Below, in pieces: positions 2,413 through 58,129 of a stretch of DNA of 64,000 bases. Source of the DNA: Anaerolineales bacterium UBA6055 (GTDB taxonomy: Bacteria > Chloroflexota > Anaerolineae > Aggregatilineales > Phototrophicaceae); NCBI GenBank assembly GCA_002428985.1, contig DIYL01000059.1, positions 127,573-191,572 on the forward strand. The letters run 5' to 3'. Every line of letters starts with the position of its first letter. The stretch's first letter is position 1. The notes beneath the pieces were generated by a model that was not told the origin of the DNA, did not search any database, and saw only the letters and a list, made by a program, of their open reading frames with translations. The position numbers and the translations under genes were made by a program.

Positions 2413-3006
2413 TTATTCTGCCGGTTCATCATCCAACAGATCCAACTTTGCATATACGCTATTCAAGTCCAGCTTGCAGTCTATTGATGGAAGAAACATG
2501 ATATCATCGCCAAACGCCTTACTATATAACCAATCTCCGTTGTCCTGACGTAGAAATCTTTCAATTTTCTGTTTATCTTGAGAGACCAATACATACTCTT
2601 CAACAGATGGGAGTTGTGTATATTCCTCTAGCTTTTGATTTCTATCAATAATCTCTGTTGATGGTGACAAAACCTCTATAATAACAGTCGGATTCGTAAT
2701 CGTATCACGCCGATTTTCTAGGAATTCAATTTTGCCACATACCACAACTACATCTGGGTAACGATAGCTAATCTTAGCGTCAACTTTAATACGCGTTTCA
2801 CTCGCATTGACAATGCAATCTTTTTGCGCCAGTTGTACCGTCAGGCTACTACTAATATTATTGGCAATCGTATTGTGGCGGACAGTTGCTCCTGTCATTG
2901 CAATAACTTCACCATTTACATATTCATGGCGACTTGCACTCTTATCCTCAAATTCCAGATATTCAGCTTCCGTCATATGGTTTGGATTATACGGTTGTGC
3001 AGACAT
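2413..3006 (-). CDS. Uma2 (DUF820) family endonuclease
   Basis: 197-aa ORF. Has TEAEYLEFE, HEYVNGEVIAMTGAT, RYPDVVVVCG and NPTVIIEVLSPST (PD-(D/E)xK-like core). Close paralog of 52501-53091. Confidence 0.85.
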   Translation of the reverse strand: MSAQPYNPNHMTEAEYLEFEDKSASRHEYVNGEVIAMTGATVRHNTIANNISSSLTVQLAQKDCIVNASETRIKVDAKISYRYPDVVVVCGKIEFLENRRDTITNPTVIIEVLSPSTEIIDRNQKLEEYTQLPSVEEYVLVSQDKQKIERFLRQDNGDWLYSKAFGDDIMFLPSIDCKLDLNSVYAKLDLLDDEPAE

Positions 3007-3040: not shown

Positions 3041-3613
3041 TTATGCATCAAATTCAACATCTAGATAAACATCAACCATCGCCAAATCAACATTGAGAGC
3101 TTCTAATGGAATCGATTCAGTGCGCAAAGTGAATTGTTGTAAAAACCACCCACCATCTTGTCGCGTCGACAACTGTGCATAAAGCTGATTTTGATCAACA
3201 ACGAGGTAATGCTGTAGCGACTCCAAACTCCGATAAAAGTTGGCTTTGATACCCTTATCAAAACTTTCTGACGAAGCCGATGTAACCTCGACTATCAGTG
3301 TTGGATTTATAAGCGTGATATTTTTTTCATCGTCAAATTTAGCTTGACCACAAACAGCACTTACATCCGGATAAAAGTATTTTTTCTCAGCAACTTTTAC
3401 ACGCATCTCACTAGAATGTGTACGACAGCCTGAACCTTTGGTTGCTTGCCACAATGCGCCACCAATATTCAAAATGATTTTGCTATGGGATTCTGTCCCA
3501 CCAGACATTGCATAAATTTCGCCGTCCATATATTCGTGCTTAACATCAGACGCGTCATCAAAAGCGAGATAATCTTCAACTGTCCATTTTTGTATTGGGT
3601 TAGTCGCCATCAA
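3041..3613 (-). CDS. Uma2 (DUF820) family endonuclease
   Basis: 190-aa ORF. Has WTVEDYLAFDD, HEYMDGEIYAMSGGT, FYPDVSAVCG and NPTLIVEVTSASS. Paralog of the frameshifted copy at 28518-29091. Confidence 0.85.
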   Translation of the reverse strand: MMATNPIQKWTVEDYLAFDDASDVKHEYMDGEIYAMSGGTESHSKIILNIGGALWQATKGSGCRTHSSEMRVKVAEKKYFYPDVSAVCGQAKFDDEKNITLINPTLIVEVTSASSESFDKGIKANFYRSLESLQHYLVVDQNQLYAQLSTRQDGGWFLQQFTLRTESIPLEALNVDLAMVDVYLDVEFDA

Positions 3614-3644: not shown

Positions 3645-5201
3645 TCATTCTGTAGACTTTTTATCTTTTTCAACCGCATCATTCTTGAGTTTTTCTGGCT
3701 CAAGCGTCGGCAAAATCCGTTTGAGATACAGCCAAGAAGCATACAGCCCAAACGCCGTCAGAATGATACTAAATGCATATGCAGTGACATAACGCGGGAT
3801 ACGCCCCTGTGTCCACAGCAAAAACGGAAAGATAAACAACATCCCACTCCCAATCGCCACCAGCGCAATATTAAGGGCGACAGATCGAAAATTACGTAGG
3901 ATGTCCCACATGGCGCCAAGACTTAAAGGAATTGCAATGAATACAAAACATACTAAGCTCATTATTGCGGTCACAGTTGGTAGTGAATGTGATTTTGTTT
4001 CTGTGATTTCGGCAACTAGCACGATTAATATGAGAGCATATCCAATCCACCCACATGCCAAAAAAGAGGTAGACCAGCGTCCTGCGTTTTGTCGAATATA
4101 AGCCGTGGAAGTTGTAACCACTAAGAATGCGGTTGCCAGAGCTAGCCAGAGTTCTAAAAACAAACCCTGTTCAACACTGTCCCATCCATGCAATGGCTCT
4201 AGTCCATAGCCTCCAACATTAACCCATTCATAAATGCCAGCAGAGGTACGTACAAGTACACCATCCCACCCCATTGCAAAAATAATGTTTCCACTTTCGG
4301 GGTCAAATGTTGCGTCGAACGGCCCTGGATCATCATTTACCGCATTACTATTGCAATTGAATAGGCATTTCCTGGAGTGTCTCAAAACAGATCTGATTTC
4401 CTTTCGTATCTCAAATAAATCATATTCTGTGATCCAGTTCACACCGTCATGAGAAGTTTCAACAGTTTCTGCTGGAGACCATCTAATTTGTAACTCTGTT
4501 CCAGTAAGTTGTGAAGGAGTATCACATTTTTCAAGATCACTAATCTCTGTAGGCTGCCATGACAAACCACCATCTAGACTTTTATATTCCTTGTGTCCGG
4601 GTCCATTAGGATACTCCGCACCAAATAAAGTAGAGGTATAAAGAAAATTATAAATATCCGTATAGCATATTGCCCGCAAACCATAATCTGGGACTATGTG
4701 AGGCGGACTTGTTGCCAGCGTCCCCAATAATCCTAAACCTAATGCAACATACGCAAACGGCTTGAGTGACACCTTATCATCGCTAGCCTTTTGCCAGATA
4801 TATGCACTGATTATCAAAGCGGGCAATGTCAGTAAATCAGTCACATCGAGGCGCAGTTGCCCCTCCCATCCAACAATCGCATAGAGCGTTTCTGTCGTCA
4901 GATGATGCACAAATGGAATTATCTTCGCTGTCGCAAACCAGACCCCGATAAACCCGATTGACAGCCCACCAACAATGTCTGTATGGCGTTCCAATCGACG
5001 TGGGATAATCCATGCAAACACCAATCCAGCAATAAACGGCGCGAATACCAACCACATAAAATCACCAAGCTTGCCTGTCAGCCATGATGGATGTGCATAG
5101 CGCAACCAGTGATCATTAAAAAGCAGGAACATGATAGCCAATAACGACAGCGGGTGCGTCAGACTATGGAACGCTTTCCAGAAAGCATGATTGTAAGGCA
5201 T
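3645..5201 (-). CDS. Polytopic membrane protein with central Asp-box (BNR-like) ectodomain, tandem paralog B
   Basis: The ORF track extends to 5306, but homology to the upstream paralog starts at the ATG at 5201 (MPYNHAFWKAFHSL). Several hydrophobic helices lie at both ends. SLDGGLSWQ and SHDGVNW match the Asp-box pattern S-x-D-x-G-x-x-W. The start lies 1 nt after the paralog A stop. Confidence 0.7.
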   Translation of the reverse strand: MPYNHAFWKAFHSLTHPLSLLAIMFLLFNDHWLRYAHPSWLTGKLGDFMWLVFAPFIAGLVFAWIIPRRLERHTDIVGGLSIGFIGVWFATAKIIPFVHHLTTETLYAIVGWEGQLRLDVTDLLTLPALIISAYIWQKASDDKVSLKPFAYVALGLGLLGTLATSPPHIVPDYGLRAICYTDIYNFLYTSTLFGAEYPNGPGHKEYKSLDGGLSWQPTEISDLEKCDTPSQLTGTELQIRWSPAETVETSHDGVNWITEYDLFEIRKEIRSVLRHSRKCLFNCNSNAVNDDPGPFDATFDPESGNIIFAMGWDGVLVRTSAGIYEWVNVGGYGLEPLHGWDSVEQGLFLELWLALATAFLVVTTSTAYIRQNAGRWSTSFLACGWIGYALILIVLVAEITETKSHSLPTVTAIMSLVCFVFIAIPLSLGAMWDILRNFRSVALNIALVAIGSGMLFIFPFLLWTQGRIPRYVTAYAFSIILTAFGLYASWLYLKRILPTLEPEKLKNDAVEKDKKSTE

Positions 5202-5202
5202 A

Positions 5203-6744
5203 TCAGACCTCTTTCTTATCTTTTTCAACCGCATCATTCTTGAGTTTTTCTGGCTCGAGTGACGGCAAAATCCGTTTGAGATACAGCCACGACGCATACA
5301 GCCCAAACACCGTCAGCATGATGCTAAATGCATAGGCAGTGACATAACGCGGAATACGCCCCTGTGTCCATAACAAAAACGGAAAGATAAACAACATCCC
5401 ACTCCCAATCGCCGCCAGCGCAATATTAAGAGCGACAGATCGAAAATTACGTAGGATGTCCCACATGGCTCCAAGACTTAAAGGAATTGCAAAAATAAAC
5501 ATTGCACAAAAGCTAACCAACCCTGCAAAAACAGGTACTGAAACAGTCAAACTTCCACCGCTAGCGGATATTGGATCATGACGTTCGAGGATAACTAGTA
5601 TCATAATTAGAACGTAAACTATCCAACTAAAAGAAATTACCTTCTTTCGCCCCATTGAAATGTGATGACGAATATACCATGTTGAAGTGACTATAACTAG
5701 AAAAGCCGTTGCTATAGCAAGACAAAACTCAAGAAAAATCAAATTATGAAAATCAGTTAGCGAAGGGTTTTCAGGAAGATTATAGTGTCCTACTGTAGAC
5801 CAAACATATTTACCATCCGACTGACGAACGAGGACACCATCCCACCCCATTGCAAATATATAATTATCACTAGCTTCATCATATACAACACTATGCGGAC
5901 CAGGATCGTCGAATATTAAGCTAGGACTATAGATATGCAAACGTCGCTTGACATAGCGAGCTTCCTGACGCAAAACTCCAAGATCATAATCGACTTGCCA
6001 TGACTCTCCATTATCTTCTGAAATCTCGATTTTATCGGCATTTGACCAACGAAATTTTGAGGGTGCATTCTCATCTATTGATGAACCTACGCATTCTTTA
6101 TTGTTTTCTTCCCAGCGATCACGCCAATTCAATCCACCGTCGTAACTTTCATAAGTTGTTATATTTCCCCACATAGACTGGGTAGTGACGGATAAAAACT
6201 CACCGTTGTAGCAGATTTCACGAATACCATATTCAGCATATTGTGGACTATCACTCGCAAGTGTCCCCAACAGCCCCAGTCCCAGGGCTACATATGCGAA
6301 CGGCTTGAGCGACACCTTATCATCGCTAGCCTTTTGCCAGATATATACGCTAATTATCAGTGCAGGCAACGTCAGTAAATCAGTGACATCGAGGCGCAGT
6401 TGTCCTTCCCACCCAACAATCGTATAAAGCGTTTCTGTCGTCAGATGATGCACGAACGGAATCGTCTTCGATGTTGCAAACCAGACCCCGATAAATCCAA
6501 TCGACAGCCCACCGACAATATCGGTGTGGTATTCCAATCGGCGCGGGATAATCCATGCAAATACCAAACCAGCAATAAACGGCGCGAATACCAACCATGT
6601 AAAATCGCCAAGCTTACCTGTCAGCCATGACGGATGTGCATAACGCAACCAATGGTCGTTAAACAGCAACAGCATGATAGCAAGCAACGATAGCGGATGT
6701 GTTAGACTATGGAACGCTTTCCAGAAGGGACGATTATAGGACAT
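5203..6744 (-). CDS. Polytopic membrane protein with central Asp-box (BNR-like) ectodomain, tandem paralog A
   Basis: 513-aa ORF. The N-terminal ~165 aa and C-terminal ~95 aa are about 94% identical to paralog B by hand alignment. Central Asp-boxes are SYDGGLNW and SEDNGESW. Confidence 0.7.
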   Translation of the reverse strand: MSYNRPFWKAFHSLTHPLSLLAIMLLLFNDHWLRYAHPSWLTGKLGDFTWLVFAPFIAGLVFAWIIPRRLEYHTDIVGGLSIGFIGVWFATSKTIPFVHHLTTETLYTIVGWEGQLRLDVTDLLTLPALIISVYIWQKASDDKVSLKPFAYVALGLGLLGTLASDSPQYAEYGIREICYNGEFLSVTTQSMWGNITTYESYDGGLNWRDRWEENNKECVGSSIDENAPSKFRWSNADKIEISEDNGESWQVDYDLGVLRQEARYVKRRLHIYSPSLIFDDPGPHSVVYDEASDNYIFAMGWDGVLVRQSDGKYVWSTVGHYNLPENPSLTDFHNLIFLEFCLAIATAFLVIVTSTWYIRHHISMGRKKVISFSWIVYVLIMILVILERHDPISASGGSLTVSVPVFAGLVSFCAMFIFAIPLSLGAMWDILRNFRSVALNIALAAIGSGMLFIFPFLLWTQGRIPRYVTAYAFSIMLTVFGLYASWLYLKRILPSLEPEKLKNDAVEKDKKEV

Positions 6745-9406: not shown

Positions 9407-10435
9407 ATGATTACTCAGCTCACACAAGCGCAACTCGATCAAATTAAAATATATACGAACAAGTGGAACGATCTGTCTACAACAACTACCCCAGCCAATC
9501 GCCCACAAGCAGAAGACGCGATTCGCCTCGCGTATAAATTAGCCAATTGCAAACAACCAGATCAAATCATCTGGTTTGATTCGCCGATGGCATTATGTGA
9601 TTATCGTACTACGCTAGACACACTCAACCTCCGCTTTAAACTGTTCACCATGATGCAATCCAAAGCAAAACAAGCGATTGCGAAACTGTTTACAGTTGAT
9701 CAATACAATACAATTCGAGTACCCGGCTGGAGTTTGTTTCAAGCAGCCAGTGACACGTTTCAATGGGATGTTGCCATAGCCATAAATAACAAGACCTCGC
9801 ATATGTTTAGCGGACAAATGGTAAGCCCACGAGATGATTCCTATTCAATGTGTCAATATGACTACTGCATCAACATGCTTGGTTTGACCGAGCTATCGCA
9901 ATTTGTGGGTGGTTTGATCGCAGTTGCAGAACATGCCGGATGGTGGTGTCCAACCGAGACAGTCTGCCTTGTTGCCGAACGTCCCTGCGCGGTTCGATAT
10001 GATGCAAACAATGCGATTCATAGTGACAACAGTTGTGCAATTGAATACCCTGATGGCTGGGGCATTTATATGTGGCGTGGTGTTGCCGTACCAGAGCATG
10101 TGATTTTACGCCCGCACGAGATCACACCCGATGAAATTATGTCAGAATGGAATGCCGAAGTCGCCCGTATCATGCTCGACCGCTATGGACAAGATAACTT
10201 CATCCGCAACGGCGGATTCACAATACAACAATCCGATGATTATGGGGATTTGTATCGCATCGAATTCGAGGAGCACGGCGATGAGCCAATCGTTGCTGTC
10301 CATGTTAAAGACCCAAGCACCGACCGTGAATACTTTTTATACGTACCACCACATATCCTCACCGCCCATGAAGGTGTCGCGTGGACATTCGGCTATGACA
10401 ACCCATCCGATTACAATCCACTCAAGGAAACATAA
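9407..10435 (+). CDS. Hypothetical protein, DUF6745-like (family name recalled from memory), tandem paralog 1
   Basis: 342-aa ORF. Has EYPDGWGIYMWRGVAVPEHVI and WNAEVARIMLDRYGQDNFI motifs. The last 93 codons are almost identical to the next gene. Confidence 0.65.
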   Translation: MITQLTQAQLDQIKIYTNKWNDLSTTTTPANRPQAEDAIRLAYKLANCKQPDQIIWFDSPMALCDYRTTLDTLNLRFKLFTMMQSKAKQAIAKLFTVDQYNTIRVPGWSLFQAASDTFQWDVAIAINNKTSHMFSGQMVSPRDDSYSMCQYDYCINMLGLTELSQFVGGLIAVAEHAGWWCPTETVCLVAERPCAVRYDANNAIHSDNSCAIEYPDGWGIYMWRGVAVPEHVILRPHEITPDEIMSEWNAEVARIMLDRYGQDNFIRNGGFTIQQSDDYGDLYRIEFEEHGDEPIVAVHVKDPSTDREYFLYVPPHILTAHEGVAWTFGYDNPSDYNPLKET

Positions 10436-10452: not shown

Positions 10453-11538
10453 ATGATTACAAAACTAACAATCAGCCAAATCAGTCAACTTAAAGCATAT
10501 GTCGAAAAGTGGCAAAATATGCAAATCCTGACTCAGTCAGCAGATCGCTATGCGACTGAATATAGTGTCTGGGTCGCGTATGCCAACGCTGGATTACCTC
10601 CACCTCAAAAAATTGTCTGGCTTCAGTCTCCTTATGAGATGTTAGAATCGATCAAAAAAGTGCTATCAAATGATCCGAAGCTATTCAAAAAATTGGCAGG
10701 GAAAAATGTTACTTCAAAAATTGAGCGGTCTATTTTTCAGGAATTTAATGATGTAATGCAAACATCTCTAGACAGTAAAATTCATAATGTCTTAAAAATG
10801 ATTTTTAGGTTAGTTACCCGTGACTCAACATACTTAACTACTGTCGACCATATTGATAGATCATTAGAGAGAACATTCCGGCGATATATACGTCAATCTG
10901 GTAAGCGTGTATATATCCCGTTTCCGTCCAATACACAAAGACTCTATCAACCACTCTATTGGCATTACGCACGCCACGAATTAGGTCTCTTAGAAGAAAC
11001 CAAAAATTTAGCAAACCTACACGCCATTCCTAAGAACGTAGACTATTGGTTATCTTTTGAAAATATATGTTTTTTATCAGAGCAACCTGAATACATCAGC
11101 TTAGATGAACATGGTAGATTACATTCTGAAAATCGAGCAGCCCTATCATATGCTGACGGTTGGGAGATATATGTATGGCACGGAGTGCTGGTTCCAGAGT
11201 ATGTGATTATGTATCCAGAAGATATTACACCAAATAGGATTATCGAGGAGCGCAATCGTGAAGTCGCCCGTATCATGCTCGAACGCTATGGACAAGATAA
11301 CTTCATCCGTAACGGCGGATTCACAATACAACAATCCGACGATTACGGGGATTTATATCGCATCGAATTCAAGAATCACCGCGATGAACCAATCGTTGCC
11401 GTCCATGTTAAAGACCCAAGCACCGACCGTGAATACTTTTTATACGTGCCACCACATATCCGCACCGCACATGAAGGTGTTGCATGGACATTCGGCTATG
11501 ACAATCCATCCGATTACAATCCGCTCAAGGAAACGTAG
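10453..11538 (+). CDS. Hypothetical protein, DUF6745-like, tandem paralog 2
   Basis: 361-aa ORF. Has SYADGWEIYVWHGVLVPEYVI and NREVARIMLERYGQDNFI. The N-terminal two thirds are AT-richer and only weakly similar to paralog 1. Confidence 0.65.
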   Translation: MITKLTISQISQLKAYVEKWQNMQILTQSADRYATEYSVWVAYANAGLPPPQKIVWLQSPYEMLESIKKVLSNDPKLFKKLAGKNVTSKIERSIFQEFNDVMQTSLDSKIHNVLKMIFRLVTRDSTYLTTVDHIDRSLERTFRRYIRQSGKRVYIPFPSNTQRLYQPLYWHYARHELGLLEETKNLANLHAIPKNVDYWLSFENICFLSEQPEYISLDEHGRLHSENRAALSYADGWEIYVWHGVLVPEYVIMYPEDITPNRIIEERNREVARIMLERYGQDNFIRNGGFTIQQSDDYGDLYRIEFKNHRDEPIVAVHVKDPSTDREYFLYVPPHIRTAHEGVAWTFGYDNPSDYNPLKET

Positions 11539-14399: not shown

Positions 14400-16097
14400 T
14401 TATGTTATCGAGTTATCATCTGGGCCACTACTATTGGATTTCTTCAGACCAGAGACAGCCGTATCATCACCACCTGCACCGATATAATTCTGCTGTGAGG
14501 CAAACTGCTGTAGCATTGTATTGACTTCCTTCAACGGCTCCAGCAATACATCTTCTGTGATTTCTTCTGGTGCAAGAACAGTTGGTGCAGTCGGTATACC
14601 AACTTCTTCTGTCGGTGCGGTCGGGATTCCGGCAACTTCCTCATCACTGCGCCCTGTCGCTAGACTCGGACGCGCAAAATAGATAATCTCTGATAGTTCA
14701 GCCGGATCCGTTAGATCGTAGGTCTTACCGCGCACACGATTCCCCGAATTCCCCTCGATTGTATGGATAGTCTTTGTATCGGAGTCATATCTTTCGACTA
14801 GCGTTGTATGGCTTGCCCGCTTAAATTTACCTTTTACAGAATACACATTCGCATTGGCATACTTATCATTGCCATCTTTGGTGGAGTCACTACTGCGTAC
14901 ATCCATAATATCGCCTGCCTGCGGCGTAAAGCCTTGATCTTCAAAGAAGGTGTCGATCGTTTCTTTCTTCTGCTCAGCGTCATCCTTCAAATCTGCGATG
15001 TCACGTGTCAACTTATTGAGCTCAACCTTCTTCTTGAAGTTGGCTTTAGAATCATCATTTTTGCTACTTGTCCCGAGCATCCCACCACCATATTCTTCGC
15101 TCAGGTCATAATTCTTATATGTCTCGCCCTTTCGAGCAAATGTCCCGATAACTTTATAACCCGATGCTTGATGGAATTTTTTGATGCCTGTCAGTTTGCG
15201 ATAATTATACGTCGCAAACCACGCACACCAATTTGCACCGCTATTTTTACTGTAGGCTTCAATCATCTCCCCTTGGTTTTTATCGGTGGTCTCCCAATTC
15301 TTACCCCCCTCATGCAAAATCGAACCCAAGAAAAATTCCATACGAGCGATAGCCGCAGCCGCTTCACCAAGAATGCGCGTTTTCTCATCAGCAACGGGTG
15401 TTTCTTGCTGGACAAATGTATCCACCATGTCGGGATATGATGGCGATATATCGAGCAGACCACGCACCGTCTCAACCAGATTCATGGCAGCTGCTTGTCG
15501 CGCTTCTTCGCGCTCTTTGGCATTCTCAATACTTTCAGTGAGTTTAATCTTCTGGAGCGCAATCATTGTCTTGTGACGATAACGCGCTTTGACTGCCTCT
15601 TTTTTCTTATTACGCGCTTGCATATATCCACGTGGATTATCATCGGGATTTATACTTTCCAATTGTTCTGACCAATAAGCCACACGCGCATTATTCAATA
15701 GGCGCAGATTCGACGCTGCCCCCGTTAACCGCACTTCAGTTTTTTCGATTTCATCGGCTTCGAGGTAAGCTTCTATCGTTTCAATCTTACGATCAACTTC
15801 ATATATCGCGTAGCTATTTGCGGTCGATTCATTAATGGACTGATTCAAAATGGGTGCATCCGGATCCACAGGTGCACGTTGGATCAAGCGATTGACAAAG
15901 TGATTACCATGTGTCTGACTAAAAAGCCGGATAGCATGTGGATTAAGCTGAGTCGGATCATTGAGAGCCCGTTGCATGAGCGAAATATCCAATCCCGACA
16001 TCGTTGGAACTGATGATTTACCAAGCGAAGATAATGATTTTAGGGCTGTCGATTCGCATTTAGTAGAGGACTTATCCTGTGTTTGTTTGGCTGTCAC
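14400..16097 (-). CDS. Effector-like protein: N-terminal GNxxVxRLIQ leader, coiled-coil region, C-terminal CHAP/NlpC-P60-type cysteine hydrolase
   Basis: The ORF is open to 16190. I prefer the GTG at 16097 (weak GGGA 7 nt upstream); the ATG at 16001 is also possible. Leader LFSQTHGNHFVNRLIQR is encoded at 15876-15926. Catalytic-type segments are NWCAWFATYNYR, SHTTLVE and TIEGNSGN. Confidence 0.65.
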   Translation of the reverse strand: MTAKQTQDKSSTKCESTALKSLSSLGKSSVPTMSGLDISLMQRALNDPTQLNPHAIRLFSQTHGNHFVNRLIQRAPVDPDAPILNQSINESTANSYAIYEVDRKIETIEAYLEADEIEKTEVRLTGAASNLRLLNNARVAYWSEQLESINPDDNPRGYMQARNKKKEAVKARYRHKTMIALQKIKLTESIENAKEREEARQAAAMNLVETVRGLLDISPSYPDMVDTFVQQETPVADEKTRILGEAAAAIARMEFFLGSILHEGGKNWETTDKNQGEMIEAYSKNSGANWCAWFATYNYRKLTGIKKFHQASGYKVIGTFARKGETYKNYDLSEEYGGGMLGTSSKNDDSKANFKKKVELNKLTRDIADLKDDAEQKKETIDTFFEDQGFTPQAGDIMDVRSSDSTKDGNDKYANANVYSVKGKFKRASHTTLVERYDSDTKTIHTIEGNSGNRVRGKTYDLTDPAELSEIIYFARPSLATGRSDEEVAGIPTAPTEEVGIPTAPTVLAPEEITEDVLLEPLKEVNTMLQQFASQQNYIGAGGDDTAVSGLKKSNSSGPDDNSIT

Positions 16098-16274
16098 GCA
16101 ATCATCCCATCTCCCAAATCGTATGGTTTCATAATAACCGGAAACGAATATGATGTCACCTCTCCAAAGAGGGGTGCGCCGAGAATGCATCGTATTTCAT
16201 ATATAAGGCATGCCATCCTCTTCGGTTTTAGTGCCGTGTTATAATAGAGTCAATCATATAGGCGAGGACTAACT

Positions 16275-16829
16275 ATGGCGATTCAACCCATTACAAAAAT
16301 TACAGCCGAATCGTACTTTGAATTAGAGGACTATCAAACACATGACCTTATTCAACTCGTCAATGGTGAGGTAATTATTGGTATGCCACCTATTCCGAAC
16401 CACCAACGCATTGTGCGCGAAATCTTGGTTATGCTGACCTTACTGGCACGTAAAATTGGTGGTGAGGCATTCGACTCTCCTATTGAATTATATCTCGACG
16501 AACACAATGTCTTCGAACCCGATGTACTTTATATGTCACCAAACAGCAAATGTGAGGTGAAAGGTAAACGATTAGAAGGCGCACCCGAACTCATCGTCGA
16601 AGTCCTCTCACCAAGTACAGCCAAATATGACAAGCGTGAAAAATATGCCACCTACGAACAACATGGCGTACAAGAATACTGGATTGTTGACCCAGTCCAC
16701 GAATTAATTGATGTGTGGGCATTAGATGGTGGCAAGTTTGTACATCAAGGCGCATACAGCACTGACGACACATTCAAGTCACAAGTACTCAAGGCCGATG
16801 TCGAAGTAAAGACACTGTTTGATAGTTAG
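16275..16829 (+). CDS. Uma2 (DUF820) family endonuclease
   Basis: 184-aa ORF. Has AESYFELED, LVNGEVIIGMPP, EPDVLYMS and APELIVEVLSPST. Confidence 0.85.
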   Translation: MAIQPITKITAESYFELEDYQTHDLIQLVNGEVIIGMPPIPNHQRIVREILVMLTLLARKIGGEAFDSPIELYLDEHNVFEPDVLYMSPNSKCEVKGKRLEGAPELIVEVLSPSTAKYDKREKYATYEQHGVQEYWIVDPVHELIDVWALDGGKFVHQGAYSTDDTFKSQVLKADVEVKTLFDS

Positions 16830-17039: not shown

Positions 17040-17699
17040 TTAAAACTTGATCTTAAGCAATTCATTTAGATCACTAATCGTATAATCAGGGGAAAATCCA
17101 AGGCTATCTGACCAAGTAAAGTTCTTTTGTATCCAGACCGATGTCATACTAACCTTATGAGCTCCTATAATATCCGTATTCGGATTATCCCCGATGAACA
17201 CACAATCTTTAGCGTCAACATTTAGGCGGTGTGTAGCGCGCCAATAAATCTCTGAATCGGGTTTATGAACCCCTTCTTCACCAGACACTAAAATCGTGTC
17301 CACTAAATCTGCAAAAGGAGTGCTATCAATCTTTGCTCGTTGTGATTGGCTTGACCCATTGGTAAGAATCCCTAGTTTGTAACCTCGAATTCGAAGATGC
17401 TTGAGGGTGTCTTCAGCATTGGGTGACATCTGACACTGCACCCACGCAGTACTATGAAAATCTAAAATGAGGTCGTCAACAGATAGTGGTAAATCAAACT
17501 AAGACTTGAGTGCTGTAAACATCTCTTGTTTGTCCGCGTAGCCATTTTTATCTAGTGTCATAAACCGACTGCGATAGGTCTCATACAGATAGTGTTTGTC
17601 TAACCCAAACCGTTTATATTGTTCTTTAACAAAGTGTTCTACAGTTGCTGTTCGGTCAGTCAAGGTATCATCGAGGTCAAATATAAATGCTTGTGGCAT
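17040..17699 (-). pseudogene. HAD-IA hydrolase interrupted by a single in-frame TAG
   Basis: ORFs 17499-17699 (FIFDLDDTLTDR, motif I) and 17040-17441 (ILTNGSS, FIGDNPNTDIIGA) are in the same frame. My hand translation across the gap reads ALKS*FDLPLSVDDLILDFHSTAWVQCQMSP, with only the TAG at 17499-17501 interrupting. Confidence 0.7.
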
Positions 17700-28517: not shown

Positions 28518-29091
28518 ATGGCAACCAATCCGCTTGATCGCAAATGGACAGCCGAAGAATATTTAGCCTACGATGACGCATCCGATATTCGCCATGAATT
28601 TCTCAACGGTAAACTTATTGCAAAAATCTATGAAACATCCAATCATAGCATCATTGTTTCAAATACATCCGCTATATTGTGGCAACTAGCCCGCAAAAAT
28701 GCTTGTCGTGCCCGCCTATAATCAAATGCTAACTAAAATTAACAATGATACCTATTTCTATCCTGATGTGTTGGTAACATGTGGAAAATCAGAATATGAA
28801 ACTGAAAATAATACAATGCCCCTAAACCCAACCGTCGTCATTGAAGTTACCTCAAAATCATCGGAAACATTTGACAAGGGCTTAAAAGCTGAGCTATATC
28901 GCAGTATTGAATCAGTCAAAGTGTATCTCGTCATCGACCAGCATCGTGTCTTTGCCCAACTATCAACCCGTCAACACAATGGTTGGCTTTTGCAGGAATT
29001 CACAAAAATCCATCAAGCGATTCCATTGAGATCAATTAATGTCGATTTGCCTCTCAGTGATGTCTATCTCGATATAGAGTTTGAAAGTTAA
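28518..29091 (+). pseudogene. Uma2 family endonuclease, frameshifted
   Basis: ORFs 28518-28721 and 28699-29091 together align end-to-end with the 3041-3613 protein. The frame changes around 28705-28718. The AMSGGT-type segment is also degraded (IAKIYETSNH). Confidence 0.75.
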
Positions 29092-30232: not shown

Positions 30233-31237
30233 ATGACGAAATCTAAGCGCAAAAATGATGAGATATTACAGCCTACCTTTTTACGATTCGTCAAATACGT
30301 TATTCTTGTGTCTATTAGTCTTATCGTACCGTTAGCGTTGATGTTTTTTTGTTCAACTACTGTACTAATGATTAGCTCGCATACATCAGATTGTTTCATG
30401 AGTCCATGTCTTCCCGATTGGGACGACATGAACGATGTGGCGGATTATTATAATTTTTACATCCCATCCTCAGCAAGTAATATCAAGTATGTTAATGATG
30501 ATGCTGATGCATTCTTCGAAATCCATTTTGATCTACCTAAGAATGATTTTGATAGCATTAGGAATCGTACTTGCCAAGGTAACTTCCAAGCAGGATATGA
30601 TCCATCTCAAAGCAAACATCAATTTTCGAGCGAATACCCAACTATACTTATAAAATCCTTTGAGTATCCCTTTTACTCACACTCAGTTGATACACCAACT
30701 CATATCTTAGGTAAACTATGCCGTTGGGATTTAGCGATTCGTGTAGATACATCAAATCCTGATATATATAAAATCACTTATCAACGCTATGAATACACCA
30801 CAACAGCTTGCGAAGTTGAGTGTTTTACAACACAGCGTTTTATCAAACCAATTAATAATTCACTGTTTGCTGTAAGTGGATTGATAGAAAGAAATGATAC
30901 ATTTTACATAGAATTTAATACTTTATGTTTCGACAGCAAAATGTATCAAATTATCAATCCAACCAATCAATATCTACCTGCGTTTACACAAATCAACATC
31001 TCTATTGATGATATGTTCTTCCTACCTACAGGGATCGTAACTAAATATCATCGTTTAGTACGAGATTATATTCTTCTAGATGAGGAAGACCATGATTTAG
31101 CACGTTACCAACAGAGTCCACTTAATGAATTTTGTATCGAACATGATTGGGAGCAAGGTAAACATACCGTAAATGTTGAAATGATTTTGCCAGATGGCAT
31201 GATCGAAAATCACAGTTTTGATTTTTATGTCGATTAA
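30233..31237 (+). CDS. Hypothetical membrane-anchored protein
   Basis: 334-aa ORF with GAGG RBS. N-terminal TM VILVSISLIVPLALMFFCSTTVLMI, then a Cys-containing extracytoplasmic region. The gene is AT-rich. Confidence 0.5.
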   Translation: MTKSKRKNDEILQPTFLRFVKYVILVSISLIVPLALMFFCSTTVLMISSHTSDCFMSPCLPDWDDMNDVADYYNFYIPSSASNIKYVNDDADAFFEIHFDLPKNDFDSIRNRTCQGNFQAGYDPSQSKHQFSSEYPTILIKSFEYPFYSHSVDTPTHILGKLCRWDLAIRVDTSNPDIYKITYQRYEYTTTACEVECFTTQRFIKPINNSLFAVSGLIERNDTFYIEFNTLCFDSKMYQIINPTNQYLPAFTQINISIDDMFFLPTGIVTKYHRLVRDYILLDEEDHDLARYQQSPLNEFCIEHDWEQGKHTVNVEMILPDGMIENHSFDFYVD

Positions 31238-31442: not shown

Positions 31443-31877
31443 ATGGCAACCAATATGCAAGAAGTTGATAGCCTCGTCGCAAATGAGTTTTCAGTTGAGG
31501 TTGATGGTAATGAAGTGCAAGGTGTGTTCAGTGTTGAAGGGTTGACATTGTTTCAACTGAGTGACGACGGAACACGCATGAATCCCGCATTGAAAATCAC
31601 CAAAATGGTACAACGCGATGCCAGCTTACCGTTCAATCAATGGCACAAAGAAACAATGGACAGCCGCGATTCGGATACCCGTCCAACCCGTACATTAGCT
31701 GTTGTTGCAATTGATGATGGTGTCGAGACCCGTCGCTGGACATTAAAAGATGCCTATATCACAAGCATTAGCTATTCTAATTATGACGCCGGCTCATCGG
31801 AAATGATTGAAGAACAATATACCATTGCCTACAACGATATTGAAGAAACTTGGACATTCGCGGATTCTAACGCGTAG
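31443..31877 (+). CDS. Contractile-tail tube-like protein (T4 gp19 / eCIS tube family pattern), orphan
   Basis: 144-aa ORF with GGAG 9 nt upstream. FSVEVDGNEVQGVFSVEGL, LPFNQWHKE and RRWTLKDAYITSISYSNYDAGSSEMIEEQYTIAYNDIE follow the conserved layout of tail-tube proteins as I recall it. Confidence 0.65.
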   Translation: MATNMQEVDSLVANEFSVEVDGNEVQGVFSVEGLTLFQLSDDGTRMNPALKITKMVQRDASLPFNQWHKETMDSRDSDTRPTRTLAVVAIDDGVETRRWTLKDAYITSISYSNYDAGSSEMIEEQYTIAYNDIEETWTFADSNA

Positions 31878-35420: not shown

Positions 35421-36041
35421 TTAATTCGCCCAAACTTTTTTAAATTTCAGACCTGTCAGATTATTCTCTTCGACGATTTGCTTGAAATCATCATTCACAT
35501 ATATCCCACTACGCCTTTGCTCCTTTAATTTAAATATGGTTGTGTTATTCGTACAATCTGGCTCAAACGAATACTTTAGAATTTTTGAAATTGTTCCACT
35601 TTTCAGATACTGGAATTCTGAATTATTATGATCAAGGCAATCAACTATCTCTACAGGATTTATAATATAGTATATTGTCTCTGTATTAATAGTATCTTCG
35701 TCTGTATAATAGACTAGGGGTAGGAATTCAATAGAGCTACCAACTACTTCCTGAATAATCACTTTGGTTTTTGAATCACATACTGGAAATCCAGATAGAC
35801 TTATAAAATTAGGAATATTTTTCTCATTATCAAAATCATATGGGTCAAACCTTACATTCAATGGTTTCCAATCGTCCAATCTAGATGAACCATCTAAAAT
35901 AGGTATGATATCAACCCGCTCGTTTCGAGTTCCCAAATATTTGTAATTCTTAGTATCAACCTGCAAAAGCCACACCCTGGGCACAATTATCTCCTCCGAA
36001 TAATTATTAAAGTCGTGAAGTTTCTTAAATGTTGTGTTCAA
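35421..36041 (-). CDS. Hypothetical protein (immunity-protein-like, DUF1629/Imm-type by loose recollection); start uncertain
   Basis: 206-codon ORF with no ATG codon at all. It opens at a TTG at 36041 without an RBS. Strongly AT-rich. The C-terminal segment reads IYVNDDFKQIVEENNLTGLKFKKV. Confidence 0.4.
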   Translation of the reverse strand: MNTTFKKLHDFNNYSEEIIVPRVWLLQVDTKNYKYLGTRNERVDIIPILDGSSRLDDWKPLNVRFDPYDFDNEKNIPNFISLSGFPVCDSKTKVIIQEVVGSSIEFLPLVYYTDEDTINTETIYYIINPVEIVDCLDHNNSEFQYLKSGTISKILKYSFEPDCTNNTTIFKLKEQRRSGIYVNDDFKQIVEENNLTGLKFKKVWAN

Positions 36042-36220: not shown

Positions 36221-38641
36221 TTATTCATCACCATCAATTGTAAAAGTCCCGAGCACAATCGTATTGTCTTGTGCACCTTCCACATTGGTTAACACATCAT
36301 AGCGTATCGCATCCGGTAACGCATACCATCCCGTCAACACCAGATAATCACCCGCAGGCAACTCACTAATATCCAGTGATAGGGTCTCGGTCCACTGTCC
36401 ATCACGTTCACCATCGCCGATATTATCATCAGCTTGTGCCACCAACCGTCGGTTTTCATCAAGGATATGGATGAATCGAATATCCGTCTGAGCCCGGGGA
36501 TTCTCTAGACGCCACCATAGACGCACAGCCGAATCTGAGGCGAAGTCCTCTGGCATGAAAAACGACGCCAACTCAATCCCATCTTCCAGCCGTATCGGGT
36601 CATAAATTGGGCCATCTGTAAACGATACGATTTCAATATCGCTGATCGTCACATCCCGACACACTAAAATCTCAGCGTTAAAGCGCACAGGGCATGGCGG
36701 ATCAAGTTCAATATGGAAAGTATTATACCCACGACGACCAATTGGTAATGGCACAGACAAGCGTTGTGTGCCATCAATCGTCCATGTATGAACCCGCTCA
36801 TCATTCAACAAAAGATGAATCGTCCGATTATCAGCGGTAAATGTCGCCGTATATTCGAGCCACCCCGGTTGTTCTTTGTAGATATAAGTAGTGTTCTGTC
36901 GTTCATCCGGCGTAACAGTATAAACACTATCCGGTTCAGCTGTCATAATTGGCGTTTCATAAATCGCATATCGATCATCTTCATAAATCGCTGCTCCAAG
37001 ATGAATCAAAGCACGATTCTGCAATGTCTCGAGCATATTCATCTGTGACGCACGTTGCTTATTGATAATCACAATATCGGCGCCTGCATCTGTCAATAAT
37101 GGCGTTTCCATCGTCGACAGCAATTCCAATCGCGCCGGATCAATCGGTGTTTCACGTGCGACTTGTCCAGCAATCAGCGCTTTATTATGAGCAGTCTGTA
37201 GAAAGAGAGCTTCTTTCGCCGACAGCAAATTATCATGGGGAACATTAAATACAGCCCGAATATCAGTACGATCAGCCAGTTCGTGAATCGCTTGAGGTAT
37301 CTGTGCAGTTTGCATCGGGAAAGACTCAAAGAATTGGTAATCACGAAAAATGAGCACCGCAAGCAAAATCACTGCCAGATAACGGACAAATTTTCTGGAA
37401 TTCCGTACCCATCCACTCGTCCAAATGAACGCCATACCATATCCAGCCATCATCGCAAACGCCAATGCGAATAAGAACATAAATCGCCCCGGCGTCCGTG
37501 CAAGCTCAAAAATAGGCAACTCCATAAATAGCGCATACGGTAATGGCACAATCGTCTCATATCCCGCGACACCTATCGTCACAGGTTGGTCGAGTACTTT
37601 GAGTACAGGACCTAACGCGAATATCCATGCGACAACTGCTACCAATAACCACCAGCGCGAGTTGCGATGACTCAACACACCGATCAATGCGAGGAACAGG
37701 CCAATTACGCCAACATAACTCGAGCCTTCAGCAATGTTCGTTCCTAAAACGAGCGATGAGTATTGGGTAATGTCCGACCAAAATGGATTCAAAAATGAGG
37801 GACTAGCCAGCCCTAATAAATCAATACTGAAACGGACAAACCCGCCAGATTCAACATATTGTGACGTCCCTAGCGTATCGCCAACTGTCGGGAAAAGATA
37901 AATCAGCAGCACCACACCACCGACCAACCCGACCGTCACAACCCGCGTGACCCCAATCCAAATGCGATTATACAACTGAGCAAACAGAAATAACGCCATC
38001 AGAGGCAACAATAAATAGATGACCTGTAACGCATGACCACTGGGTGACAAGACAAAGAAGATAACAGATAACCCGAACCAGCGTCGCCGCCCAGTATCGA
38101 TATATTGAAACAAGGCGTACACAAGCAATGGTACACCCCACTGCACCATCAACCCCGCATGACCATCAAACAGATGCCCCTGAAACACCGGAAAAATCAT
38201 AAAGATCAAACCCGCAATCAAAGCAGGCGTATGATGTTCATGTCCAAGGCGATGACGCGCAAGAAAATACATCGCCCATCCATTTAATGCCATCGTTAGC
38301 AATATTGTAATGTTGTACGCCGTAGCAATCGGCATCACGAACGTAAACACCCACATCGGGAAAAACTGTAACGGGTTCGCCCACAACGTCACACCCGAAA
38401 ATCCCTCAGGATACCCTAAGTTCGATTGCCAGAAGATGTCTTCACCAGTTTGGATTGCTGTTTTAAACCACCAGACATGCCGTGCCATCTCATAGGCATC
38501 ACTTGTATCCCCTCCAATAAACGCTGTCGAAAGCGAAGTCACCGCCGGATATGTCACTCCGATAGCAACCAATAAATAGAGCAGATAGACCAATACATGA
38601 TGGCGTGGAATCTGTTTGAGCACAGCAATTTCCTCATTCAC
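36221..38641 (-). CDS. Large polytopic membrane protein, GT-C-like (ArnT/PMT/YfhO-type) glycosyltransferase candidate with C-terminal extracytoplasmic domain
   Basis: 806-aa ORF. About 12 or more hydrophobic helices fill the first ~440 aa, followed by a soluble ~350-aa domain. No diagnostic motif was verified. Confidence 0.55.
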   Translation of the reverse strand: MNEEIAVLKQIPRHHVLVYLLYLLVAIGVTYPAVTSLSTAFIGGDTSDAYEMARHVWWFKTAIQTGEDIFWQSNLGYPEGFSGVTLWANPLQFFPMWVFTFVMPIATAYNITILLTMALNGWAMYFLARHRLGHEHHTPALIAGLIFMIFPVFQGHLFDGHAGLMVQWGVPLLVYALFQYIDTGRRRWFGLSVIFFVLSPSGHALQVIYLLLPLMALFLFAQLYNRIWIGVTRVVTVGLVGGVVLLIYLFPTVGDTLGTSQYVESGGFVRFSIDLLGLASPSFLNPFWSDITQYSSLVLGTNIAEGSSYVGVIGLFLALIGVLSHRNSRWWLLVAVVAWIFALGPVLKVLDQPVTIGVAGYETIVPLPYALFMELPIFELARTPGRFMFLFALAFAMMAGYGMAFIWTSGWVRNSRKFVRYLAVILLAVLIFRDYQFFESFPMQTAQIPQAIHELADRTDIRAVFNVPHDNLLSAKEALFLQTAHNKALIAGQVARETPIDPARLELLSTMETPLLTDAGADIVIINKQRASQMNMLETLQNRALIHLGAAIYEDDRYAIYETPIMTAEPDSVYTVTPDERQNTTYIYKEQPGWLEYTATFTADNRTIHLLLNDERVHTWTIDGTQRLSVPLPIGRRGYNTFHIELDPPCPVRFNAEILVCRDVTISDIEIVSFTDGPIYDPIRLEDGIELASFFMPEDFASDSAVRLWWRLENPRAQTDIRFIHILDENRRLVAQADDNIGDGERDGQWTETLSLDISELPAGDYLVLTGWYALPDAIRYDVLTNVEGAQDNTIVLGTFTIDGDE

Positions 38642-52500: not shown

Positions 52501-53091
52501 CTATCCATCCAGCAAATCTAGTTTAGCGTAGACTGCTGATAGATCTAATTCGCAATCGATAGAAGGCAGTTTAATGATGCCATCCAACCCGCTAATCCGT
52601 GTATAAAGCCAATTGTCCGCATCTTGACGCAAAAATCGTTCAATCTTAAATTCATCCTGCGAGACAAGTACGTATTCTTCTAAAGATAACAGTTGGGTAT
52701 GTTCATCAAATTTCTGATTGCGATCAATCAGGGCAGTAGCTGGAGATAGCACCTCAATTAATACAGTAGGGTTGAGGATCGTGTCATTACGATTCTCCAT
52801 AAACTCAACTTTGCCACATACAACGATAATATCAGGAAAACGATAACTAATAGAGCTTTTCGAGTCTACTTGAACCCGCGTTTCATTTGTATTGATGACG
52901 CAATCTTTATTGCCGAGTTGATTACCAAGTGAGCGATCAATATTATGGATAATCGTATTATGTCGAACTGATGCACCAGTCATTGCAAGCACTTCGCCAT
53001 TGACGTATTCATAACGAATATCACTTTCATCGCATAAGTCAAAATATTCTTCTTGCGTCATATAGCGATTTTCATAGGGTGGTGCCGACAT
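52501..53091 (-). CDS. Uma2 (DUF820) family endonuclease
   Basis: 196-aa ORF. Roughly 65-70% identical by eye to the 2413-3006 protein (YEYVNGEVLAMTGAS, FPDIIVVCG, NPTVLIEVLSPAT). Confidence 0.85.
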   Translation of the reverse strand: MSAPPYENRYMTQEEYFDLCDESDIRYEYVNGEVLAMTGASVRHNTIIHNIDRSLGNQLGNKDCVINTNETRVQVDSKSSISYRFPDIIVVCGKVEFMENRNDTILNPTVLIEVLSPATALIDRNQKFDEHTQLLSLEEYVLVSQDEFKIERFLRQDADNWLYTRISGLDGIIKLPSIDCELDLSAVYAKLDLLDG

Positions 53092-53207: not shown

Positions 53208-53795
53208 CTATTCATCATATATATCTGAGTTAGAGTAGATTATCGACAAGAGTAACGTACAGTCAATCGACGATATATAGATTTCGTCATCAATATCAGT
53301 ACGAATACGATACAACCAATCGTCACTGTCGTGTCTAGAGTAATGTTCTACACAACAGTCATCTTCTGATATGAGCAGGTAATCCATCACTGATGGTGTG
53401 GACAGATACTCATGTAATTTATCTTGTCGATCGATTAAAGCAGTTTCAGGGGATACAATTTCAACCAGCATAATCGGATTCATAATGCAGTCATCACGAT
53501 CTTTATACAAATCAGGTTGCCATTTTGTCACTAGTACATCAGGAAACCGAAACGTATTAACAGGTGATAACCACACCCGAATTTGTGATCCTAATACTGC
53601 TAAATCAGATTGATTCTTTAAGGACATACCAAGTAATACCCCAACATTTGTTGAAATAATATTGTGATTCGCATTTTTCCCATGTCGCATATAAACGACG
53701 TCATATGCATACTCATTTGGGCGATCAACTAACGCTTCATATTCAAAATATTCTTCTTCAGTCATGCGTAGTGCATACTTTGGAATAAATGGCAT
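53208..53795 (-). CDS. Uma2 (DUF820) family endonuclease, divergent
   Basis: MTEEEYFEYE, FPDVLVTKW and NPIMLVEIVSPET motifs. GGAGAG lies 8 nt upstream of the ATG at 53795; the ORF is open to a GTG at 53819. Confidence 0.7.
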   Translation of the reverse strand: MPFIPKYALRMTEEEYFEYEALVDRPNEYAYDVVYMRHGKNANHNIISTNVGVLLGMSLKNQSDLAVLGSQIRVWLSPVNTFRFPDVLVTKWQPDLYKDRDDCIMNPIMLVEIVSPETALIDRQDKLHEYLSTPSVMDYLLISEDDCCVEHYSRHDSDDWLYRIRTDIDDEIYISSIDCTLLLSIIYSNSDIYDE

Positions 53796-53839
53796 ATCAG
53801 GCTCTCCGTATAATGACACGCCAATTATAGCAAATCGCC

Positions 53840-57130: not shown

Positions 57131-58129
57131 ATGAGCGATTCGCCAACATTCTATATTTTTCACGGTGATGATGACATCAGCCTCGAAAACGCCCTAAATA
57201 AAATGCGGGACTCAATGGGTGCAGATGGCGATTTTAACACCTCAGAATTTGAAGGATCAGAGACCACTGTGCCGGACGTCTTAGGCGCAGTCAAGTCGAT
57301 GCCATTTTTAGCTGACAAACGCCTTGTCATTGTCAAAGGACTCATCAGCCATATCACGCGCAAAGGTGCAGGCGAAACCGGCAAAAAAGCCAGCGAACGT
57401 TTACTAGAAGATTTGCCCAATTTACCCGCCCATGCCCGTCTTGTCTTAGTCGAACGCGACACCTTATCCGATAAAAATAAAATCCTGCGTACGACCGAAA
57501 AAATGGGTAACGGATATATCAGTAAATTCGAAAAACCCAAAAACCTCACCACATGGATTATTAAACGGGCGAAATCTGAATATGATGTCGAAATTGTGCC
57601 ACAAGCTGCCCAAGCTATCGCCGATGTCGTCAATGATGATATGCGCCGTGCCGATAGTGAATTGTACAAATTAGTCTGTTACGTCGACGGTGATCATCCC
57701 ATCAACGAGCAAGATGTCGCCACCTTGACCCCATATGTGCCCGAAGCCAATGTATTTGATATGGTTGATGCGCTCGCACAAGGCAACGGTAACACAGCAT
57801 TACGCTTAATTCATCAGGCATTACATGATAACCCACGCGACCCCGGTTTCGGTTTATTCTCATTGATTGTCAGACAATTTCGCTTAATTTTAATGGTGCG
57901 TGAACACCTCAATAGTGGGGGTGGCTCGCAAAATCCAACCATTGCGAAAGCACTTGGTGTTCATCCATTTGTAGCGGGGAAAGTTTCACAGCAATCACGC
58001 GCCTTCAATACAGAACAACTAGATTCTATTCTCAAGCGACTACAAAAATACGATCAAGATATGAAAACCGGACGCATTGATCCACGGCTCGCGCTCGATT
58101 TACTAGTCACCAGCCTCACACGGAACTAG
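57131..58129 (+). CDS. holA: DNA polymerase III delta subunit
   Basis: 332-aa ORF. Has the FYIFHGDD N-terminus, KRLVIVKGL and a C-terminal helical domain of typical size and order. Confidence 0.8.
   Translation: MSDSPTFYIFHGDDDISLENALNKMRDSMGADGDFNTSEFEGSETTVPDVLGAVKSMPFLADKRLVIVKGLISHITRKGAGETGKKASERLLEDLPNLPAHARLVLVERDTLSDKNKILRTTEKMGNGYISKFEKPKNLTTWIIKRAKSEYDVEIVPQAAQAIADVVNDDMRRADSELYKLVCYVDGDHPINEQDVATLTPYVPEANVFDMVDALAQGNGNTALRLIHQALHDNPRDPGFGLFSLIVRQFRLILMVREHLNSGGGSQNPTIAKALGVHPFVAGKVSQQSRAFNTEQLDSILKRLQKYDQDMKTGRIDPRLALDLLVTSLTRN

Follow-up and report, generated by a model that had tools for sequence, protein, structure and literature searches.

We analyzed a 64,000-nucleotide stretch of contig DIYL01000059.1 of Anaerolineales bacterium UBA6055, here called the window, in which an open reading frame (ORF) on the minus strand (14400-16190; 596 aa counted from the first ATG) had been read, in a preliminary description made from the sequence alone, as a cell-wall hydrolase without an export signal. 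The motifs quoted for it, LFSQTHGNHFVNRLIQR, GANWCAWFATYNYR, QAGDIMDV, and SHTTLVERYDSDTKTIHTIEGNSGNRV, are all found in the ORF, and Cys259, the sole cysteine of the protein, lies within GANWCAWFATYNYR. The coding sequence is given here as 14400..16001 (minus strand), a form of 533 aa plus stop, and residues are numbered from the ATG at 16001. In-frame alternatives upstream are a GTG at 16097 and an ATG at 16190; the identical protein P0001 was called by the Joint Genome Institute (JGI) with 525 aa, starting at 15977, eight codons after 16001, and the alignment with homologue P0053 begins at residue 63 of the long ORF. N-terminal hydropathy does not discriminate between these start codons, and a scan for promoters and terminators stayed at chance level. 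Annotation, by precomputed and fresh Pfam assignments, covered the window and 10 kb on each side (JGI metagenome 3300003272, 335-kb contig Cyano_1000023). It places a ClpC gene convergent at the 3' end and a Uma2 gene divergent at the 5' end, and no codirectional neighbor able to serve as an immunity gene beside the ORF, just as had been described.

A profile search of 1.84 billion cluster representatives recovered 211 related proteins at E ≤ 1e-3 and 79 at E ≤ 1e-30, with the conserved part of the family corresponding to residues ~165 to 525 of the window protein. A word-indexed protein search gave only four to six relatives, and a four-sequence alignment led to four related genomic loci, from Anaerolineae, Anaerolineaceae, a cyanobacterial metagenome-assembled genome (MAG), and an uncultured bacterium. 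Residues W258, C259, G363, D364, H398, G417, N418, and R444 are invariant in the 79-member alignment, and E416, conserved in at least 90% of the members, is nearly so. The layout of a catalytic Cys and a catalytic His, for which non-conservation would have been a point against, is thus retained in 79 of 79 homologues.

Scanned singly, 51 of the 79 relatives match the CHAP domain (Pfam PF05257; gathering score, 26 bits) at E ≤ 0.01, with a best value of 2.9e-7 and most of them just below the cut-off. Their matches to CHAP and to the NCBIfam family TIGR02594 are limited to the His half of the profile, because an insert of ~70 to 100 aa separates the Cys and His lobes in every member. When a 68-aa insert (residues 289 to 356) and an 18-aa insert (residues 376 to 393) were deleted in silico, the window protein matched CHAP with 36.2 bits (E = 8.6e-9) over profile positions 3 to 81 of 81, the Cys falling at profile position ~9, in the N-terminal Cys region. 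With this score above 26 bits, the window protein qualifies as a split CHAP domain, and two relatives whose inserts were likewise excised also rose above the gathering score. The CHAP or NlpC/P60 match that had been expected is therefore missing from the native sequence but present in most relatives and, end to end, in the insert-excised protein. Against TIGR02594, the window protein scores 16.6 bits (E = 0.007), below the 70.55-bit cut-off, and 28 of the 79 relatives give weak matches (best, 1.8e-7); judged by these scores, it is related to this family and not a member of it. The Lys/Asp-rich insert between the Cys and His blocks, previously estimated at ~60 aa, is real but 68 aa long. It contains 11 K, 9 D, and 7 E and is family-wide rather than private, with conserved positions L331, F352, and F353, and the additional 18-aa insert before the His is private to the window protein.

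From the N terminus to the C terminus, with all coordinates on the minus strand, the protein first carries a leader, AIRLFSQTHGNHFVNRLIQR (residues 23 to 42; 15876..15935), followed by a variable charged helical linker (residues 43 to 162; 15516..15875) at whose position relatives carry eCIS_core/DUF4157, PG_binding_1, or other N-terminal modules. Next comes a conserved helical extension specific to the family (residues 163 to 254; 15240..15515; conserved K207, G212, R220, E222, G226, G232, W236, E237, N242, and Y250), which precedes the CHAP N-lobe (residues 255 to 288; 15138..15239), where the invariant W258-C259 of GANWCAWFATYNYR stands at the start of a predicted helix and the Cys codon occupies 15225-15227. 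The Lys/Asp/Glu-rich helical insert of 68 aa (residues 289 to 356; 14934..15137) splits the domain at this point. The C-lobe (residues 357 to 450; 14652..14933) contains PQAGD with the invariant G363 and D364, the private 18-aa insert (14823-14876), the invariant His398 (codon 14808-14810), E416-G417-N418 (codons 14748-14756), and R444. A Pro/Ala/Glu-rich variable linker with the diverged peptide repeat EEVAGIPTAPT/EEVGIPTAPT (14580..14642) then leads to a conserved C-terminal amphipathic helix, EDVLLEPLKEVNTMLQQFASQQNYI (residues 483 to 507; 14481..14555), which could be an autoinhibitory or docking element. A helix of this kind, LLEPLxxxNxxLQxFA, follows the variable linker in nearly all family members and was modeled with a predicted local distance difference test score (pLDDT) of ~85. 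The repeat had been described as a 30-nt tandem duplication at 14584-14643; what stands of this is the peptide repeat, but as a diverged pair of 33 plus 30 nt at 14642-14580, with ~80% DNA identity between the copies and a 3-nt indel, and Tandem Repeats Finder reported no repeat in the gene.

AlphaFold2 gave a full-length model with a pLDDT of 63.8 and a model of residues 165 to 510 with a pLDDT of 72.6 and a predicted template modeling score of 0.80. Helices are predicted in the N-terminal region of ~200 aa, in keeping with its earlier description as charged and helix-prone. In both models C259 is at a helix N terminus, H398 at a strand start, and E416/N418 at the end of the next strand. In Foldseek searches against the PDB, the CHAP lysin Ly7917 ranked first (E = 0.048; probability, 1.00), followed by the phi812 CHAP domain and, further down, by the papain-fold peptidases GtgE, AvrRpt2, phytochelatin synthase, and cathepsins; against BFVD, the matches were "CHAP domain protein" entries (E = 0.009; probability, 1.00) and endolysins. 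The top CHAP matches have probabilities of 0.99 to 1.00 but E values of just 0.009 to 0.1, with models built from eight sequences. When family alignments of 4 and of 27 sequences were used for profile searches of PDB sequences, the matches were no better than chance. The invariant Cys and His, the CHAP matches of the relatives and of the insert-excised protein, and the CHAP lysins found by Foldseek uphold the murein-hydrolase reading as far as the CHAP fold is concerned, and we assign the window protein with high confidence to the CHAP-type cysteine hydrolases, as a split and extended form. In 9 of the 79 relatives the catalytic module is joined to PG_binding_1 or PG_binding_3, which suggests that peptidoglycan is the substrate. 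That the module cuts peptidoglycan is accordingly a prediction we hold with moderate confidence, and an amidase or endopeptidase would be the most likely activity.

The proposed lack of a classical export signal also held. Crude hydropathy analysis detected no signal peptide or transmembrane segment in the window protein with any of the three start options, none of which has an h-region; the highest 19-residue Kyte-Doolittle mean, 1.29, is located inside the catalytic module. By the same measure, an N terminus resembling a signal peptide occurs in only 1 of 96 full-length representatives of the family, and this near-absence of Sec signals is odd for wall hydrolases. The N termini of the family are modular. 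A leader of the GNxxVxRLLQ type is present in ~23 of the 96 representatives; among the 79 members, Pfam eCIS_core (PF13699, formerly DUF4157) stands in the leader's place in 12, PG_binding_1 is N-terminal in 8, and in P0029 and P0031 the leader is followed by eCIS_core. No WXG100/LXG or other type VII (T7) secretion marker was found in Pfam, in the window protein at E ≤ 10 or in the 79 members at E ≤ 0.01.

The leader of the window protein is a degenerate copy of the motif hhxLQRxhGNxAVxRLLQ(R). The preliminary description had noted the same leader in a second protein of the window, at 60628-62463; the motif is indeed common to both, but the copy in the CHAP-type protein is the degenerate one. 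With leader profiles run over the 691 six-frame ORFs of the window, the window protein ranked second to third, and the protein at 60628-62463 was found at ~1e-7. Homologues P0003, P0005, and P0006 have canonical leaders at the aligned site. Since the window protein's own leader is degenerate, its assignment rests on its position and on the canonical leaders of these homologues.

As a family-independent test of the leader, we searched public contigs for a degenerate DNA pattern that encodes QRxxGNxAVxRLLQ; an earlier word-indexed protein search with a leader alignment had given only four tiny proteins. The pattern was found in at least 120 metagenome stretches and in one IMG/VR contig. The counts that follow are among the matches listed. 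All 125 pattern matches lie in frame within ORFs, with the leader at a median of 39 aa from the chosen start (10th to 90th percentile, 29 to 59), and positions left unspecified by the pattern are conserved in the 109 unique segments, with L at -1 in 101, L at -3 in 84, and V/I/L at -4 in 96. Full-length leader proteins numbered 68. eCIS_core, present in 24 of them (best E value, 9e-35), is the sole leader-enriched domain, and the others found were OmpA, PG_binding_1, Peptidase_M15_4, Tlde1, Endonuclea_NS_2, HNH, Aspzincin_M35, Reprolysin_4, and PI3_PI4_kinase. Judged by its domain content, this repertoire has a polymorphic-toxin pattern, and the association of the leader with eCIS_core appears strong.

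Leader strings are also present in Dataset EV4 of Danov et al., which contains toxin predictions made from position in loci of extracellular contractile injection systems (eCISs) (PMC11297309). Genera represented include Mucilaginibacter, Nostoc, Streptomyces, Lentzea, and Pseudoxanthomonas, and the genes lie zero to three genes from eCIS core genes (for Lentzea, the last core gene lies at a distance of 3). In the supplements of Geller et al., leader strings gave irrelevant matches only, and a literal-string search across 8 million papers gave no mention of the leader motif. The leader, as a sequence-conserved N-terminal motif common to eCIS_core toxins and DUF4157-less proteins, is the more novel by-product of this work. 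In the IMG/VR contig, two leader genes are adjacent (L009:1839-4400), the first without eCIS_core and the second combining the leader with a Cys-rich segment, eCIS_core, and OmpA. This gene pair is present in three contigs, this one and two from metagenomes (L044 and L080), and one of the three is classed as viral.

The second leader protein of the window (60628-62463, plus strand; JGI call, 60640-62463, 607 aa) has a canonical leader, ILNMQQTLGNQAVMRMLQ, at 60748-60798. Its C terminus is unrelated and has the PI3/PI4-kinase-like catalytic motifs HADRHAENY...GIDNDSVWG with no significant Pfam match; one metagenomic leader protein does match PI3_PI4_kinase. By these motifs the second leader protein may be a eukaryote-directed effector, and, its C terminus being unrelated, the leader is in this genome an N-terminal tag that can move between proteins. 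A third paralogue with the leader (ILHLQNTIGNQAVIQMM), 639 aa long, follows ~1 kb past the window end (L134:17920-19839, plus strand).

We regard it as probable, though well short of certain, that the window protein is an orphan effector of a contractile injection system (CIS), a peptidoglycan hydrolase that lacks DUF4157. The protein would be a modular toxin-type protein of about 525 to 565 aa whose C-terminal two-thirds form a divergent CHAP (papain-fold Cys-His-Glu/Asn) domain. Its N-terminal region would target it, unfolded, for loading into a phage-tail-like CIS encoded elsewhere in the genome, presumably through the AAA+ ATPase of the system by analogy with AlgoCIS and with the Photorhabdus virulence cassette (PVC). 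The machine would deliver the enzyme to a neighboring bacterium, and there the CHAP module would cleave the wall. The cytoplasm of the producer would offer no substrate to the enzyme, so that an adjacent immunity gene would be unnecessary. For the suggestion of a non-Sec delivery route, the lack of Sec signals, the exchange of leader and eCIS_core, the 24 of 68 leader proteins with eCIS_core among the matches listed, and the toxin lists from eCIS loci point by association to contractile injection; T7-like and vesicle routes found no support. It is also possible, and here we are more tentative, that the ~17-residue motif hhxLQRxhGNxAVxRLLQ(R), ~30 to 60 residues from the N terminus, is a DUF4157-independent cargo-loading element for one large CIS lineage.

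Several observations weigh against this explanation. The window protein's leader gave E values of 0.43 with a strict metagenome profile (691 six-frame ORFs of the window), 0.07 with a profile of 15 family members without the window protein, and 0.018 with a combined profile. For eCIS signals, no conserved sequence has been reported (PMC11297309; AlgoCIS preprint, bioRxiv 10.64898/2026.05.27.728243), and that the loading signal is the motif itself, rather than a disordered N terminus in general, is a putative assignment that may or may not be right. The native protein has no Pfam match at E ≤ 10, CHAP and eCIS_core included; the AlphaFold2 models came from an input of eight sequences and have mean pLDDT values of 64 to 73, and Foldseek returned no match at E ≤ 0.001. 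Genes for a sheath, baseplate, spike, DUF4255, or CDC48-type ATPase are absent from the window and from the 10 kb on each side, and the only structural gene of contractile-injection type in this region is a lone Phage_T4_gp19 tail-tube/Hcp-like gene of 144 aa (31443..31877, plus strand; E = 9.2e-10, above the cut-off), ~15 kb from the CHAP-type gene. Homologues P0002, P0003, P0154, and P0080 sit in housekeeping neighborhoods with no CIS structural gene beside them, and no CIS structural gene was found around a further homologue (L008). Of 86 families matched at 16 long leader-bearing loci, 25 were listed, and these included no CIS structural family. In our sample, then, leader genes do not as a rule lie directly beside a CIS, and orphans are common.

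That the enzyme acts on the producer itself is, in our estimation, rather unlikely. As an autolysin or lysis factor, it would stay cytoplasmic until a holin-like event, programmed lysis, or intracellular firing of a CIS exposed the wall of the producer; it would then assist in setting free injection particles or cell contents, with the leader left as a relic or serving as a regulatory handle. The lack of an export signal and of an immunity gene, together with the structural likeness to phage lysins, fits this role, and Geller et al. noted that eCIS toxins may contribute to lysis of the producer (PMC8213781). However, there are no holin, spanin, or phage genes nearby, the modularity of leader and eCIS_core suits polymorphic toxins and not lysis cassettes, and some relatives have a small overlapping gene downstream that is a potential immunity gene (L130).

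More doubtful is a papain-fold toxin, still delivered as an effector, whose targets would be proteins instead of peptidoglycan and whose activity would be that of a protease, deamidase, or transglutaminase-like enzyme. The Foldseek lists do contain GtgE, AvrRpt2, phytochelatin synthase, and the cathepsins, the large insert and extra helices could form a site for a protein substrate, and the leader-bearing neighbor with PI3/PI4-kinase-like motifs looks eukaryote-directed; yet the best matches in sequence and structure are specifically to CHAP and TIGR02594, and the domains fused to the catalytic module in 9 of the 79 relatives are peptidoglycan-binding ones.

We give slightly less credence again to another non-Sec route, be it T7-like, by vesicles, or through a system not yet described, for which the leader would be the signal. 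Most leader genes and all family members examined do lie in housekeeping neighborhoods without CIS genes, and DUF4157 proteins have also been found in places with no known CIS, for instance beside ripC in mycobacteria (PMC12067865). Against such a route, Pfam at E ≤ 10 gives no WXG, LXG, or other T7 marker, the one domain enriched with the leader among the matches listed is eCIS_core, leader strings occur in genes zero to three genes from eCIS core genes, and orphan DUF4157 proteins of Halogeometricum are secreted in a CIS-dependent manner (PMC11566945). A cytoplasmic housekeeping enzyme without delivery, for example in muropeptide recycling, is very improbable: the ClpC, PBP2, and LytR genes nearby and the missing export signal would suit it, but the family is very small and patchily distributed (211 representatives among 1.84 billion proteins), its N termini are polymorphic with fusions to eCIS_core and PG_binding domains, and synteny is not conserved across homologues.

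Export through Sec/Tat, by a T7 secretion system signal, or by a type IX secretion system C-terminal domain was rejected for want of a matching domain or context, as was a prophage lysis cassette.

The reading as a CIS effector can be compared with several known systems. DUF4157, also known as eCIS_core and PVC-metallopeptidase, is an N-terminal marker of the toxins of phage-tail-like injection systems (PMC3482391; PMC8213781) and marks eCIS toxins with an odds ratio of 2614 (PMC8213781). Toxins of the eCIS-associated or PVC type (PMC3482391; PMC8213781; PMC11297309) share with the window protein a hydrophilic N terminus without a signal peptide and the frequent lack of an immunity gene, which is typical of the class (PMC3482391; PMC8213781); many have the hhxLQRxhGNxAVxRLLQ leader followed by a variable C-terminal toxin domain, and eCIS_core is fused to relatives of the window protein's catalytic module. 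The class is already on record as including papain-fold NlpC/P60 and peptidoglycan hydrolases: PVC-class toxins with NlpC/P60 domains have been described, commonly with no immunity gene (PMC3482391), and the eCIS toxin EAT10, for which peptidoglycan hydrolase activity is predicted, was 10^4-fold more toxic in the periplasm (PMC8213781). The CHAP domain of the window protein differs from this class in being a split, extended subtype. Unlike typical eCIS toxins, moreover, the window protein has no eCIS_core, no adjoining CIS structural gene, and a degenerate leader, which tells against the CIS reading; with neither eCIS_core nor a CIS beside it, the two defining features of the class, it is a probable but atypical member only.

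The AlgoCIS effectors Cgo1 and Cgo2 (bioRxiv 10.64898/2026.05.27.728243; PMC8894135) have the arrangement proposed here, with an N-terminal loading region, an optional DUF4157, and an effector domain. Loading through the AAA+ protein Alg15 requires the disordered N-terminal region upstream of DUF4157, and DUF4157 is dispensable (bioRxiv 10.64898/2026.05.27.728243), which makes a cargo without DUF4157 plausible. The cgo genes, unlike the CHAP-type gene, lie within the AlgoCIS cluster, and the authors found no sequence conservation between systems. In Halogeometricum, DUF4157 proteins are encoded away from the cluster, and their secretion is sheath dependent (PMC11566945).

With CHAP hydrolases such as Ly7917 (Streptococcus phage lysin; PDB 5D74/5D76) and the phage phi812 hub CHAP (PDB 9EUM), the window protein shares, in its predicted structure, the Cys at a helix N terminus, the His on the following sheet, and a Glu/Asn as the third residue. 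Unlike them, it has the 68-aa helical insert, the ~90-aa N-terminal helical extension, and the C-terminal helix; unlike both these hydrolases and TIGR02594 proteins, its native sequence falls below the Pfam and NCBIfam thresholds, and unlike phage CHAP lysins it has no cell-wall-binding domain and no phage context. Type VI secretion amidases of the Tae/Tse1 NlpC/P60 type resemble the proposed effector as small papain-fold wall amidases that are harmless in the producer cytoplasm and injected into a competitor; they use another delivery machine and other targeting determinants, with the resemblance ending at the fold and not extending to sequence. Tae proteins are paired with cognate immunity proteins of the periplasm.

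If the window protein is a CIS effector, such effectors occur far from the machine genes and without the DUF4157 marker, and since toxin catalogues rely on proximity and DUF4157, the environmental effector repertoire would exceed what these list. For cargo recognition, the leader would then offer a defined sequence open to mutation (G32 and N33), with bearing on the engineering of protein-delivery tools, and if it is indeed a loading element it would mark orphan effectors across Chloroflexota, Cyanobacteria, Actinobacteria, Bacteroidota, and Proteobacteria, including the CHAP enzyme and its kinase-like neighbors. The split CHAP module would represent a distinct, unannotated wall-hydrolase subfamily of possible antibacterial interest. 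If the reading is wrong, the protein would be merely a divergent cytoplasmic CHAP protein.

Around the second leader gene, two divergent regulators with GerE, NB-ARC, and TPR domains (58116-60410 and 62477-63967, both on the minus strand, the latter reaching past the window end) flank the coding sequence, and a regulator of this type divergent from a leader-bearing effector is a repeated unit. GerE-type regulators are eCIS associated (PMC8213781). None of the genes neighboring the CHAP-type gene encodes eCIS_core. The gp19 gene sits between a membrane protein gene (30233-31237) and a response regulator gene. In the Bacteroidota-like MAG GCA_031415375.1, a gene of 232 aa (L130:11328-12026) with no Pfam match overlaps the stop of P0154 by 14 nt; it is a candidate immunity gene with no counterpart at the window locus, and an Imm49 gene is also found near this P0154 locus.

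Further features of the window include an orphan Imm11 gene (35421-36041, minus strand; E = 1.5e-15), directly downstream of the gene for an 806-aa multi-pass membrane protein without a Pfam match (36221-38641, minus strand). Genes for Uma2-family endonucleases are unusually dense, with at least six in 64 kb and several tandem pairs (2413-3006, 3041-3613, 16275-16829, 52501-53091, 53208-53819, and about 28699-29091). Tandem membrane-protein paralogues at 3645-5306 and 5203-6744 (minus strand) have near-identical N termini, YNxxFWKAFHSLTHPLSLLAIM..., and tandem DUF6745 paralogues are located at 9407-10435 and 10453-11538 (plus strand). A HAD-family hydrolase gene is apparently split into ORFs of 66 aa (17499-17699) and 133 aa (17040-17441) on the minus strand and may be frameshifted or interrupted.

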